Shown here one piece after another: positions 3,917-29,839 of a DNA stretch of 64,000 bases. A program made the translations under genes and the position numbers. Position 1 is the stretch's first letter. Each line of letters begins with the position of its first letter. Location of the stretch: the sequence record PQ351811. One strand, written 5' to 3'. This DNA comes from Shigella phage SSG23. The notes under the pieces are model-generated. The model did not search any database. It had not been told where the DNA came from and was given only the letters and a program-made list of their open reading frames with translations.

Positions 3917-4463
3917 TTCTGATTCGCTGGTAATGGAACATTTTATTGAATTGGTACACACATACACAATAAAACAATCATATCACAAGAATCCGATCTA
4001 TGGCTATCTGAAAGCGCGTATTGCTAAAATGTGGGGTCAGCCAGTGGTTAAGATGTGGTATGATGACGGTTATCGTCGTTACCTTAAAGTTATTCATCCA
4101 CAGGATTTGATGGTAACTATGGACATTGGCGACTTTGTAAAAGACAAAGTAGAATCCATTATTAAGAGTGTGGTTGGTGAATATAATCCGATTGTATATG
4201 GTGCTTTCGTCCAGTGGATACAATCCAGCAAGTATTATTTTCCGAATACTCCATTGACGCTAACAGGTTGGATCTCTGTCATGCATAGCGGTGTATTCCT
4301 GGAAGCGTCAGAGACAATGTACAAGGGATATATTCTCCCGCATCGACTGGTGAAATGTGATCACCGCTTGACTGTAGGTGAATTTCGCGATATTCTGGAA
4401 CAGCAAGCGGAAGACCTGCAAGGTGAAATTGAAGAATTTTTAGAGGAACATAAACTAAAATGA
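3891..4463 (+). CDS. hypothetical protein
   Basis: ORF; GAAGGGGG Shine-Dalgarno before ATG 3891. Confidence 0.4.
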   Translation: MNMTMVEADSDSLVMEHFIELVHTYTIKQSYHKNPIYGYLKARIAKMWGQPVVKMWYDDGYRRYLKVIHPQDLMVTMDIGDFVKDKVESIIKSVVGEYNPIVYGAFVQWIQSSKYYFPNTPLTLTGWISVMHSGVFLEASETMYKGYILPHRLVKCDHRLTVGEFRDILEQQAEDLQGEIEEFLEEHKLK

Positions 4464-26261: not shown

Positions 26262-26519
26262 ATGAGTCGAAGTTTTGATTTTATGTTCGCCAAGTATCAT
26301 CGAGACAAGAAATCGATGGACCTGTTTATGGAATGTTTGAGGTATGAATATGCTCACCTTCGGAAGAACAAAATTGATCCGCAAGTTTCCTACGAAAACA
26401 TCAAGAAATATGCGAAAGAAGTGATTGACAATAATTGCACCGTGACATATAATGCGTTTATTGATTTATGGGCGTGGGATGTAATCTACGCAGAGATGGA
26501 CAAAGAAGATTTTAATTAA
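26262..26519 (+). CDS. hypothetical protein
   Basis: 85-aa ORF with GGAG RBS. Confidence 0.4.
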   Translation: MSRSFDFMFAKYHRDKKSMDLFMECLRYEYAHLRKNKIDPQVSYENIKKYAKEVIDNNCTVTYNAFIDLWAWDVIYAEMDKEDFN

Positions 26520-26533
26520 GTGAGGATTATATT

Positions 26534-28642
26534 ATGAAAATGCATATTGATAATGAAGAAGTATTTGGCAGTGACCTGAGCGGTGCGGTTGATTTTTCAC
26601 TGAAAGCAAGTAGCAAGGCTTTTATGGTGCTTTCTAAGAACACATATCAATATTGTGAGCGTGCTTGCGTCCGTGAGTATTCGTGCAATGCTACCGACAC
26701 TCACAAAGAAGCCGGAACCTTAGATCGTCCGTTTGATATTCATTTGCCGACTGCAATCGAACCGTATTTCTCTGTACGTGATTATGGTACTGGTATTCCA
26801 TCTAAGAAAGAATTAGAACAACTGTTTACGGTTTACTTTGAATCAACCAAAGACCAGACTAATGACTATATCGGATCTTTTGGTTTGGGTGCGAAGTCTG
26901 CTTATAGCTACACCGACACCTTTACAATCGTGAACTATTACAATGGTCGCGCTTATGGCTTTACTGCATTCGTGCAAAACTCTATGCCGAAAATGGTGCA
27001 GATTTTCGACGAACCAACCTATGAAGACAATGGTCTGAAAATCACTATTCCGGTGAAAGAGAAAGATATTCAGACATGGCATCGAGAAGCACAATTTGTA
27101 CTGCGTCATTTTGGGGAACATAAACCGAATATCAACGCAATCGAAATTAATTATTTCCCTAGCTTTGATAATTATTATGTGTGTAATGGACGTGATAACG
27201 ATTCCTATGTGGTATATGCAATCATGGGTAAGATCCAGTATCCGATCCCGTATGAATATGTTCGCGGAACATGGTTAGAAGCTGTAAACCGCCAGCACCA
27301 GACCATTTACATTAATTTTGAGTTGGGTGATCTGGACCTGATGCCATCGCGTGAAGAAGTTCACTTGTCAATTGAGACTAAAGCGAACATCGAAAAACGT
27401 ATTGCAGAAATCAATGAAATGATGTTGGAAAAGGTTAAAGAGAAGATCGCCAGCATTGAAACGGAGCGTAAACTCGCGCAATTTATGAGCGAGTATTCAT
27501 CGACTCAACGCAATATTATTAGCAAGATGGGTAAGATCGGACAATGGGACGATCCGGTAGCAATCTATAACAAGTTTGTAAATGCTGGTAAAGATTCGCC
27601 TAATGACGTAGAAGGTCAAGTGTATACTCTGTATCGTACTCGACACACAATCAGCAAATTGCGCCCTGCTTTCGTTAGCAGTCAATACAACATTACGCAC
27701 TTTGTATGGATTCATAAAGAAGATATTCTATGTGTAATTGATGATACGGATAAACCGAAACTGCGTGCACTGACTCTTAACGGCATGGTCCAGGAATACG
27801 GCATCAATAAAAAGGTACTGGTGTTCCGTCAGAGCAACGAAAAACACATGGAGACTTTCGAGTACATCAAACAGTATTATGATGAATCGGAAATGACCGT
27901 GATTAAGGTATCCGAGGCCGATGATCTGCGTGCTAAAGCAGTTAAGCCGGAGAAGACCGAACGTGCACAGCGTGAAGCTACTCCTAAGCTGCCTAACGTG
28001 TATATCATGGAAAAGATTGGTGACAGTTGGCATAAAACCAGCCATCATATGAAAGCGGCAGAGATTCGCGAGTTATCAGGCTTGCACATGTTCCGCGTGG
28101 GTGATGCATTCGAAAGCCGTAGCCGTCAATCGATCTATAGTGAAGATACCTTACACACGGCGCTTGACTACTTCGGGGTAACAAAGTATATTATTACCAG
28201 AAACGAGACACAAAAATATCTCGTTGACGAACAACTGGAATGCGCGCTAGAATTTGTTCGCGGTAAGCTGGCTGGTCTGGCTAAGAAGGTTAAGACCAAT
28301 CATCTGGGGTATGGCGAATATCTGGGTGTGATCACTATGTTGTTTCATGACGATGAATTAGAACGCTGTATTCCAGAATTTATTGACAGACTCTATGGTC
28401 GTCATTATAATAAAGAGGTTTCCAAGTTGCTCCTTCGTACTCGTTGGATTATGGACGAAGAAACTAAGAAGATCTGCGATGAAAAATTCACGGCAGCAAA
28501 CGAACGAATTAAAGCAGTTTGTGCGAAGTTTAAAGAGAATAGCCCGTTACTGTATGATATTGTAGATAACTGGTATCGTATTCTGCATAATGACAAACGC
28601 GCACAAGACTTTATGAAACTGGTTAAGAATGTTAAATTTTAA
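26534..28642 (+). CDS. rIIA: rIIA protein
   Basis: 702 aa with GHKL-type ATPase-like motifs (VRDYGTGIP, GSFGLGAKSA); sits between 39 and rIIB as in T4. Confidence 0.8.
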   Translation: MKMHIDNEEVFGSDLSGAVDFSLKASSKAFMVLSKNTYQYCERACVREYSCNATDTHKEAGTLDRPFDIHLPTAIEPYFSVRDYGTGIPSKKELEQLFTVYFESTKDQTNDYIGSFGLGAKSAYSYTDTFTIVNYYNGRAYGFTAFVQNSMPKMVQIFDEPTYEDNGLKITIPVKEKDIQTWHREAQFVLRHFGEHKPNINAIEINYFPSFDNYYVCNGRDNDSYVVYAIMGKIQYPIPYEYVRGTWLEAVNRQHQTIYINFELGDLDLMPSREEVHLSIETKANIEKRIAEINEMMLEKVKEKIASIETERKLAQFMSEYSSTQRNIISKMGKIGQWDDPVAIYNKFVNAGKDSPNDVEGQVYTLYRTRHTISKLRPAFVSSQYNITHFVWIHKEDILCVIDDTDKPKLRALTLNGMVQEYGINKKVLVFRQSNEKHMETFEYIKQYYDESEMTVIKVSEADDLRAKAVKPEKTERAQREATPKLPNVYIMEKIGDSWHKTSHHMKAAEIRELSGLHMFRVGDAFESRSRQSIYSEDTLHTALDYFGVTKYIITRNETQKYLVDEQLECALEFVRGKLAGLAKKVKTNHLGYGEYLGVITMLFHDDELERCIPEFIDRLYGRHYNKEVSKLLLRTRWIMDEETKKICDEKFTAANERIKAVCAKFKENSPLLYDIVDNWYRILHNDKRAQDFMKLVKNVKF

Positions 28643-28653
28643 GAGGTGATATT

Positions 28654-28785
28654 ATGACTAAACTGACCGCTATCCAGAAAGAAACTATTCGTAAACAATA
28701 CGCTCGCGGCTTGACTAAAGGCGAACTGGCACGAATCTATAATGTATCAGACCGCACAATCCGCAAGGTTGTCGAAGCAAAATAA
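28654..28785 (+). CDS. small HTH protein resembling the rIIB N-terminal domain
   Basis: 43-aa ORF MTKLTAIQKETIRKQYARGLTKGELARIYNVSDRTIRKVVEAK aligns with the N-terminus of T4 rIIB (LTKNEQAEIVKLY...ELADWQGVSVDTIRRVLKNAEEAK). Confidence 0.4.
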   Translation: MTKLTAIQKETIRKQYARGLTKGELARIYNVSDRTIRKVVEAK

Positions 28786-28846
28786 TTCTGGTATAATGAT
28801 GTGAATCGGGCGGCGATAGTCGCCCACTAATAGAGGAATGAATACT

Positions 28847-29839
28847 ATGACTAAAGCAAAAATCACCGTCTCTGACCGTAACGTTCAATGCCTGGACTCT
28901 GCGAAACAAATCAAACTGGCTAAACAGTGGGGCGAAGGTAAGTTTACTACCCGCGAAGCACTTGCGGCAGCATTTGGTGTATCTCGTCGCACTGCCTCCC
29001 GTGTATTACTGATTCAGAAAGACGCAGTAGCGGAAGGTCGCAAGGCACTGGAAAACCGTAAAGCACGCCGTAAAACCAGTAAAGGAAAAGGCGGTGAACG
29101 CGCAAAAAAGCCCGTGACTACTTCCTCAAAAATCGTAGCAATAGCCTCATCTAAATTCATTACTATTACATGTGGTGACATTGTTTATACTGCTGACCCA
29201 TCACATGTTAACTTTAATGAAGCACTGGAAGCGATTAAACAAAATGATTTCATCAAAGCTATTACGCTGATTGACATTAAGAAAGCGGTTGAAGTATATT
29301 ATCACGGCGCTTTCCGTATCGAAAATGGCATTGTGTATTATCATAATATTGTTCTTGATAATAATCTGACTCGTCGAGTTGTTGAGTCGATTAAAGAGAA
29401 TAAGCCATATACGCACTATCTGAACTTCTTTGAGAAGTGCAAGAAAAACCCTAGCCGTAAGGCGGTAGATCGTCTGTTTGACTTCTTAGAGCACAACGAC
29501 ATTGAGATCGGGGAAGATGGTTGTTTCTATGCATGGAAACGTGTTGATGTTGATTATAAAGATTTCTTTACGCATACGTTTGATAATAGCCCAGGGCGCA
29601 CGGTTAAAATGAAGCGTAAAGACGTGGACCCAGATGATGACCGCACTTGCTCTAATGGCCTCCATGTTGCAGCGAAACACTACATTCCGCACTATGGCGG
29701 TGGACGAGGCCGAATCATTAAATGCAAAGTTGATCCGCGTCACGTTGTAAGTATTCCGAAAGATTATGCGAATGCCAAAATGCGCTGTCATCGTTACTAT
29801 GTGGTTGAAGATGTAACCGAAGGTTTTAGCCATTACTAA
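28847..29839 (+). CDS. rIIB: rIIB protein
   Basis: NPSRKAVDRLFDFL, TFDNSPGRTVKM, CSNGLHVAAK, YYVVEDVTEGF match T4 rIIB; start at second ATG, properly spaced from GAGG. Confidence 0.85.
   Translation: MTKAKITVSDRNVQCLDSAKQIKLAKQWGEGKFTTREALAAAFGVSRRTASRVLLIQKDAVAEGRKALENRKARRKTSKGKGGERAKKPVTTSSKIVAIASSKFITITCGDIVYTADPSHVNFNEALEAIKQNDFIKAITLIDIKKAVEVYYHGAFRIENGIVYYHNIVLDNNLTRRVVESIKENKPYTHYLNFFEKCKKNPSRKAVDRLFDFLEHNDIEIGEDGCFYAWKRVDVDYKDFFTHTFDNSPGRTVKMKRKDVDPDDDRTCSNGLHVAAKHYIPHYGGGRGRIIKCKVDPRHVVSIPKDYANAKMRCHRYYVVEDVTEGFSHY

Follow-up and report, generated by a model that had tools for sequence, protein, structure and literature searches.

Few genes in molecular biology are as famous as rIIA and rIIB, and their locus in Shigella phage SSG23 (sequence record PQ351811) raises a simple question: what is the 43-codon open reading frame (ORF) that is found between the two genes, and where did it come from? 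The locus was analysed within a stretch of 64,000 nucleotides (nt), referred to below as the window, which belongs to a Krischvirus (RB49-like) genome of the Straboviridae. An original prediction, made from the sequence alone, had described the ORF as a stand-alone copy of the helix-turn-helix (HTH) module of the rIIB N-terminus, positioned just upstream of rIIB. The analysis upholds this description: judged from sequence comparison, the ORF is a genuine small gene with a predicted translation product, and it is an old, selected gene that is common to several lineages. The rII locus of the RB49-like clade is a three-gene cassette, consisting of rIIA, the free HTH gene and rIIB.

The predicted product of the ORF (MTKLTAIQKETIRKQYARGLTKGELARIYNVSDRTIRKVVEAK; start codon ATG at 28654, stop codon TAA at 28783-28785) was compared with rIIB proteins by pairwise alignment, with profiles and by database searches. 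Residues 4-41 were aligned with residues 7-45 of T4 rIIB at 41% identity (pairwise E = 5e-4) and the Smith-Waterman score was reached by 2 of 20,000 shuffles, which bears out the proposed alignment with the T4 rIIB N-terminus. A profile was built from the first 60 amino acids (aa) of 116 rIIB proteins, with the Krischvirus clade left out: the small ORF scored 48.3 bits without any gap (best of 2000 shuffles, 8.6 bits; T4 rIIB, 59.8 bits), which identifies it as an rIIB-type HTH module, and the small ORFs of other lineages scored 44-54 bits. When 50,697 phage records were searched by tblastn, the best matches outside Krischvirus were to the N-termini of rIIB, with identities of up to 52.5% (Jiaodavirus), and unrelated phage HTH proteins ranked below them. 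The RIIB family profile phrog_609 touched the small ORF at positions 756-795 (E = 0.009); for the rIIB of the window, the match to that profile begins at position 743. When the ORF was aligned by MAFFT with a diverse set of 24 full-length rIIB proteins, it fell on the N-terminal module, with G19, A26, V31, S32, T35, I36 and V39 as common residues.

Other families were matched less well. The best Pfam match of the ORF was CENP-B_N (PF04218) at 26.0 bits, which formally passes the cut-off of 21.2 bits and compares with 48 bits on the rIIB profile; this relation is one of fold class and not of specific family. HTH_7 (PF02796, 18.3 bits) and Sigma70_r4 (PF04545, 21.1 bits) stayed below their gathering thresholds of 23.8 and 24.1 bits, respectively. 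Weak matches to the HTHs of HNH or homing endonucleases and of invertases could also be read in another way, as the DNA-binding tail of a homing endonuclease or recombinase that was once inserted between rIIA and rIIB, has since decayed and has no relation to rIIB. Such elements abound in T4-like genomes, and a match from IMG/VR (43% identity) falls on the HTH at the C-terminus of an HNH endonuclease. However, the rIIB N-terminal profile gives 48 bits where any other family gives 15-26 bits, and no endonuclease remnant was present beside the ORF in any lineage examined. On account of the weaker scores and the lack of flanking remnants, a homing-endonuclease origin was rejected and is regarded as highly improbable. 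In the IMG/VR contigs L035/L036 (~2153-2734), the HNH homing-endonuclease-like protein ends in the HTH EIAIIYNVSDTTVRDVL; its 43% identity to the small ORF suggests that the rIIB-type module and the DNA-binding tails of homing endonucleases belong to the same broad HTH class.

The module is not joined covalently to the rIIB body: translation would stop after residue 43, a spacer of 61 nt follows, and rIIB has its own Shine-Dalgarno (SD) sequence and ATG. The product is a paralogue or split-off domain copy, not an rIIB protein. The remark that the ORF and rIIB both begin MTK is true in the window but does not extend to relatives, in which the small ORF begins MSK, MAK, MVK or MK and rIIB begins MPR, MKR, MI or MS; because the shared MTK is not kept, it is regarded as a coincidence.

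Translation signals and conservation were then considered together. The small ORF starts 11 nt past the rIIA stop codon, and a GAGGTGA-like or strong SD is located ahead of it in every relative lineage. It was intact in 58 of 58 Krischvirus records (58 records by megablast; 58 by tblastn with at least 95% protein identity). Seven sites vary among 13 Krischvirus sequences: at six of them, all third codon positions, the change is synonymous, and the seventh replaces T2 by N. Divergent small ORFs, all of 43-46 aa, were obtained from a large protein database in about seven metagenomic lineages, and the order rIIA, small ORF, rIIB was kept in all the metagenomic loci examined (L009, L010/11, L012/13/14, L024/25, L027, L028); one protein (P0126, 44 aa) was added by family profile match alone. 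Between lineages, the proportion of nonsynonymous differences (pN) was 0.08-0.17 and that of synonymous differences (pS) was 0.65-0.85, the synonymous sites being saturated. In the same lineages, identity to the window copy was 58-86% for the small ORF, 33-44% for rIIA and 45-63% for rIIB, and the C-terminal half of the small protein (TKG..A..NVSDRTIR..VE) was near-invariant. The small ORF is under strong purifying selection and is conserved beyond both of its neighbours. The comparison with relatives, which the original prediction had set as its own test, found the ORF neither absent nor frame-disrupted, and no frameshift fusing it to a neighbour. A profile search and an IMG/VR scan for further free-standing copies gave only rII-linked proteins of 43-46 aa; the unrelated HTHs that were also recovered lay beside a TrwC relaxase, beside a LexA-like gene and within an HNH endonuclease.

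These data bear directly on the idea of a non-functional relic, i.e. an old rIIB 5' end that was left behind by recombination or partial duplication and is open by chance. A relic would account for the 11-nt distance to the rIIA stop codon, as in T4 rIIB, and for an ORF that is closer to the rIIB N-termini of other genera than to the adjacent one. It is contradicted by the purifying selection, the kept length and SD, the conservation above that of the neighbours and the saturated synonymous sites. Selection, kept length and conservation beyond the neighbours form a pattern that neither a decaying remnant nor an assembly frameshift can give; the pseudogene relic was therefore rejected, and the chance that it is correct is considered very small.

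The ORF could also be part of a neighbour's product, joined to rIIB or rIIA by a sequencing frameshift, by programmed frameshifting or by a gene-60-style bypass of the ~60-nt gap. Translational bypass is classically associated with T4-like phages; the ORF ends AAA-TAA ahead of a hairpin, AAA is also codon 3 of rIIB, and the junction of VVEAK with AKITVSDR resembles the T4 linker EEAKRPKVTISGD. This reading has to contend with a stop codon that is the same in 58 independent genomes and recurs in the metagenomic lineages, and with a spacer of variable length that leaves no fixed frame: it measures 61 or 62 nt in Krischvirus and 52-78 nt elsewhere, where it may also give way to a TGATG overlap. 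Matching take-off and landing codons are unconserved and are absent from L013 and L014, and a conserved SD, ATG and promoter-like site belong to rIIB itself. Assembly frameshift and recoding were both rejected on the shared stop codon, the variable spacer, the unconserved codons and the start signals of rIIB, and their probability is put close to nil.

The second copy of the module, as had been noted, is retained in the downstream rIIB. The rIIB of the window is 44% identical to T4 rIIB in an alignment that opens with NVQCL against NIKCL, and its residues 12-55 fall on the HTH of T4 rIIB (residues 3-45), in a region that is modelled with confidence. On the rIIB N-terminus profile, the fused HTH scored 26-30 bits in the window phage and 21-30 bits across the clade, and an indel was needed. 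Its third helix reads VSRRTASRVLL (RTASRVLL), as compared with DTIRRVL in T4 and RTIRKVV in the free copy. The 48 bits of the free copy, against 26-30 bits for the fused one, argue that on profile scores the free copy is canonical and the fused copy derived and divergent. The fused copy is not decaying, because its segment FGVSRRTASRVLLxxKD is kept across lineages.

For the free ORF, Smith-Waterman scores were 41 to its own fused HTH, 49 as the median over 121 rIIB N-termini, and 80-86 for the best N-termini in other genera. BLASTP of the ORF against its own rIIB gave no significant match (E = 26), and the relation was visible by Smith-Waterman alignment with shuffles and by profiles. The greater closeness to the rIIB N-termini of other genera than to its own neighbour argues that the free ORF is, by sequence similarity, not a recent local duplication. 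With this refinement, the proposed domain duplication or split of rIIB is supported. Between one and three fused modules are found per rIIB, and a single free copy may be present or absent: the rIIB of Aeromonas phage phiAS5 (P0082, 432 aa) has three tandem N-terminal HTH modules, and locus L009 combines the free gene with an rIIB of three tandem fused modules (P0009, 459 aa; L009:4685-6064, ENA contig ERZ27260015 k141_60519). In L027, whose rIIB is 45% identical to that of the window, an ORF of 46 aa overlaps both the rIIA stop codon (ATGA) and the rIIB start codon (TGATG), and the junction is without spacer, promoter or hairpin. When the end of the ORF and the start of rIIB were set against the T4 linker, VVEAK followed by (MTK)AKITVSDR was found in the window and VEVK followed by MIKVSDR in L027, a short and weak resemblance. 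T4 rIIB also starts 11 nt past the rIIA stop codon; not every genome keeps this distance (0 nt in a Jiaodavirus, 83 nt in L026).

From these sequences we favour a duplication of the module followed by a split as the probable origin of the gene. The rIIB HTH module would have been duplicated in an ancestor, and a break would then have cut the first module from the rest; in L027 this break would amount to no more than the TGATG stop/start overlap. In the Krischvirus branch the gap would have grown to ~60 nt, which now appears to carry a promoter and an RNA hairpin.

The spacer itself is 61 nt long in the window and 62 nt in most other Krischvirus, owing to an extra A directly after the hairpin (window 28826 region; L002:3753-3814, L020:2259-2320). 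The TATAAT box and the hairpin that had been reported between the two genes are both there: the -10 hexamer lies at 28792-28797 (TGgTATAAT) with TTGTCG 17 nt upstream, and the hairpin at 28808-28825 separates the small ORF from rIIB. The putative rIIB promoter, predicted from sequence, has an extended -10 and a -35-like hexamer at 17 nt. Besides the window, this spacer holds promoter-like sites in some other Krischvirus and in L010, L012/L013 and L028, and the spacer of L009 has the same TGgTATAAT box. A further site was found inside rIIA, with 10-12 of 12 matches, 223-271 nt upstream of the small ORF in Krischvirus, L010, L012, L024, L027 and L028; its position is kept although the rIIA proteins are only 33-44% identical, and L009 has the corresponding sites at distances of 331 and 403 nt. 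The site in the window has the look of a conserved promoter internal to rIIA, at a place similar to that of the rIIB promoters which T4 has within its rIIA. RB49 is without motA and without middle promoters (PMC1524935), and sigma-70-type promoters are therefore expected ahead of such genes.

A GC-rich hairpin was found in seven of seven spacer-bearing lineages, ending 19-31 nt before the rIIB ATG, and 0 to 22 of 5000 spacer shuffles did as well in the individual lineages. The stems differ by lineage (GGGCGGC, GCGCCTC, CGTCCTG, GCGTCCC, GCGTCCTA, GCGCCC); in FL20 the stem is the same as in the window and the loop is AATA in place of GATA. That the structure is kept and the sequence is not argues for a role at the RNA level (or in DNA structure) rather than for an operator that the invariant recognition helix would bind. 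As an intrinsic terminator the hairpin gave a negative result: ACTAATAG follows the stem, no T-run is present in the window or in any relative, and the terminator scan returned no report. Because there is no U-tract, it is not a classical terminator. An Rfam search with the spacer hairpin gave no match, RNAalifold on a MAFFT alignment of the spacers gave no consensus structure (the hairpins were misaligned), and the fold of the whole 101-nt junction was not significant (z = -1.3), whereas the local hairpin alone is. As a side observation, locus L026, which is without the small ORF, has a UUCG-tetraloop hairpin (ATGGGAG-TTCG-CTCCCAT) followed by TTTACA-17-TATAAT between rIIA and rIIB (3918-4000), in the reverse order to that of the window.

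The same region is relevant to a different function for the protein, in which the rIIB-derived module is now an independent transcription regulator of the rIIB promoter or of other early promoters, and not an rII subunit. In structure it is closest to the DNA-binding HTHs of regulators, recombinases and transposases, Pfam and PHROG matches include Sigma70_r4, Mor and late transcriptional activators, and the inverted repeat lies at or beside the rIIB -10, where an operator would lie. In addition, rIIB is already regarded as a specific transcription factor on the basis of its HTH (Iyer et al., 2021; PMC7824862). However, the recognition helix NVSDRTIRK is invariant while the inverted repeats are wholly different (GGGCGGC, GCGCCTC, CGTCCTG, GCGTCCC), and L027 keeps the ORF though it is without spacer, promoter and hairpin. 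An independent regulator is considered unlikely.

Expression of the cassette can be proposed as follows. The small gene would be made from the rIIA mRNA and from the internal sigma-70-type promoter, with the help of its own strong SD, and rIIB would be driven by its own extended -10 promoter. The hairpin, having no U-tract, probably acts on read-through RNA as a 3' end, a stability element or an attenuator, and would uncouple the output of rIIB from that of rIIA and the HTH gene. The coordinates of all the features are listed in Table 1.

Table 1. Features of the rII locus in the window (positions of the 64,000-nt stretch) and in relatives (positions of the respective locus)
Feature	Position	Strand	Basis or remarks
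Sigma-70 consensus promoter-like site upstream of rIIA	26425..26453	+	TTGACA-17-TATAAT, 12/12 matches
rIIA, 702 aa	26534..28642	+	Annotated RIIA in SFHK24 (100% identical) and in other Krischvirus records; weak GHKL ATPase match
Sigma-70 promoter-like site inside the 3' part of rIIA	28383..28411	+	Perfect TTGACA-17-TATAAT; 271 nt upstream of the small ORF
SD GAGGTGAT of the 43-aa ORF	28643..28650	+	Begins directly after the rIIA stop codon (28640-42); GAGG core ends 7 nt 5' of the ATG
Free HTH gene, 43 aa (RB49 gp274 family / PHROG 15481)	28654..28785	+	ORF, profiles, conservation, fold
Promoter-like site for rIIB	28769..28797	+	TTGTCG-17-TATAAT, TG at extended -10; -35 in the last codons of the small ORF
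GC-rich hairpin GGGCGGC-GATA-GTCGCCC	28808..28825	+	7 pairs including one G-U; ends 21 nt 5' of the rIIB ATG
SD GAGG of rIIB	28833..28836	+	10 nt from ATG 28847, 1 nt from ATG 28838
rIIB, 330 aa	28847..29839	+	T4 rIIB, 44% identity, E = 2e-84; phrog_609, E = 2e-106
Fused divergent HTH module of rIIB, aa 12-56	28880..29014	+	T4 alignment; profile 26-30 bits with indel; model
Relatives with the -10 in the hairpin loop	L010:2705-2769, L013:1708-1776, L028:1712-1789		

The rIIA-rIIB region (26534..29839, 3.3 kb) is 100% identical to that of Shigella phage SFHK24 and 96-97% identical to RB49, Phi1, GEC-3S and ~55 further Krischvirus genomes. The local gene order is as follows: topoisomerase II large subunit, four small ORFs, rIIA, the 43-codon ORF, rIIB, three small ORFs and topoisomerase II medium subunit. 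In GenBank the 43-aa ORF is labelled 'hypothetical protein' (RB49p274, RB49 gp274), and a member of the same family, Sf20 gp142, is annotated in its record as 'DNA-binding, homeobox domain-like'. The ORF matched phrog_15481, a family of unknown function, over its entire length (E = 3e-34; all 43 residues on the 43 positions of the profile), and no link between RB49 gp274 / PHROG 15481 and rIIB is stated in the GenBank records examined and the literature retrieved. The gene belongs to a family that is already annotated but unnamed, and the locus is a variant architecture of the known rII locus, not a new kind of system. The start of rIIB also differs among GenBank records: it is placed at 28838 (333 aa) in SFHK24, UPWr_E1 and PTE-Eco09 and at 28847 (330 aa) in TB34, kaaroe, Sf20 and others. 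The spacing of the SD supports 28847 as the predicted start.

The folds of both copies were examined with AlphaFold models. The model of the 43-aa protein (AlphaFold 2; mean predicted local distance difference test, pLDDT, 87.5) consists of helices 6-18, 22-28 and 33-41, and the protein is very basic (11 K/R, 4 D/E). The closest solved structures were the DNA-bound HTHs of IS21 IstA, gamma-delta resolvase / Hin and CENP-B (TM-score 0.80-0.82; root-mean-square deviation 0.9-1.6 Å over 39-43 residues), with E-values that were weak, as expected at 43 residues. In the rIIB model a three-helix HTH (residues 18-56, pLDDT > 90) is followed by a long helix (58-77), a disordered basic linker (80-93) and the body, the third helix of the fused HTH continuing into the long helix. 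The body itself (residues ~95-330) was mostly modelled with pLDDT > 85, and a Foldseek search with it against the PDB gave no meaningful neighbour (best E ~0.1, TM-score at most 0.2); on this model, its fold appears to have no solved representative. A local Pfam search of rIIB gave no rIIB family, PF26926 (Phage_T4_rIIB) being found in precomputed annotations only.

Several points weigh against reading the ORF as a functional copy that arose by duplication and splitting of the rIIB module. The two copies in the phage are only weakly alike (12 of 37 positions identical; 80 of 20,000 shuffles score as well), no unsplit rIIB with a first module resembling the 43-aa ORF was found among the 121 rIIB N-termini compared, and the free copy is limited to one clade. 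The arrangement of the hairpin and the -10 varies: the hairpin is located downstream of the -10 in the window (by 10 nt) and in L009, and the -10 is in the loop in L010, L013 and L028. A general rule by which a divergent fused HTH would go with a free copy was dropped, since two other lineages (P0051, P0043), whose fused HTHs score low, are without the small ORF. Moreover, the first part of the T4 rIIB cistron (the B1 segment) tolerates pairs of frameshifts and the r1589 deletion, and is dispensable for rIIB function on lambda lysogens. By analogy with T4, the N-terminal module would then be accessory to the rIIB body; being accessory and autonomous, it fits a module that is multiplied, diverges or is released as a separate protein.

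With these points taken into account, the explanation as a whole (identity of the gene, origin and mechanism jointly) is given a probability of roughly 0.7. For the identity of the gene and its origin, confidence is high. For the mechanism, we tentatively propose, at clearly less than even odds, that the 43-aa protein binds in trans the same target as the N-domain of T4-type rIIB, most likely DNA, and that the fused copy took on a different role, also conserved.

rIIA and rIIB overcome RexAB; rIIB is needed to evade it, and also triggers a bacterial gasdermin/CARD defence (bioRxiv 10.1101/2023.05.28.542683). It is possible, though doubtful, that the 43-aa protein is a functional third rII component ('rIIC'), in which the ancestral DNA- or partner-binding head of rIIB has become a separate, separately dosed subunit. 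If so, rIIA/rIIB would depend on it in countering host defences (e.g. RexAB-like systems), or it would alter the response of host sensors to rIIB, and it would offer a small, separable handle on the rII mechanism and on the dispensable N-terminal segment of rIIB. The existence of a separate gene, its conservation above that of rIIA and rIIB, and the presence of up to three fused copies elsewhere point to the rIIB N-terminal HTH as an autonomous selectable unit. The result refines a known locus and is of modest interest, chiefly because the 43-aa protein gives separate access to the rIIB N-domain and a simple experimental entry to it; for annotation, PHROG 15481 / RB49 gp274 gains a name and the rIIB start is corrected in some records.

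Among known systems, the HTH of T4 rIIB (residues ~3-47) is like the small ORF in its module, at 41% identity over 39 aa, in its signature residues and in its place 11 nt after rIIA, and it likewise follows a promoter inside the end of rIIA. In T4, however, the module is joined to the body, whereas here a stop codon follows after 43 aa and rIIB has a second, divergent module. The rIIB of phiAS5 and P0009 show the same tendency to duplicate the module; there all three copies stay fused, though L009 adds a free one. The HTHs of Hin and gamma-delta resolvase, IstA and CENP-B are similar to the small protein in fold and size but, unlike it, are parts of enzymes or larger proteins with known DNA sites.

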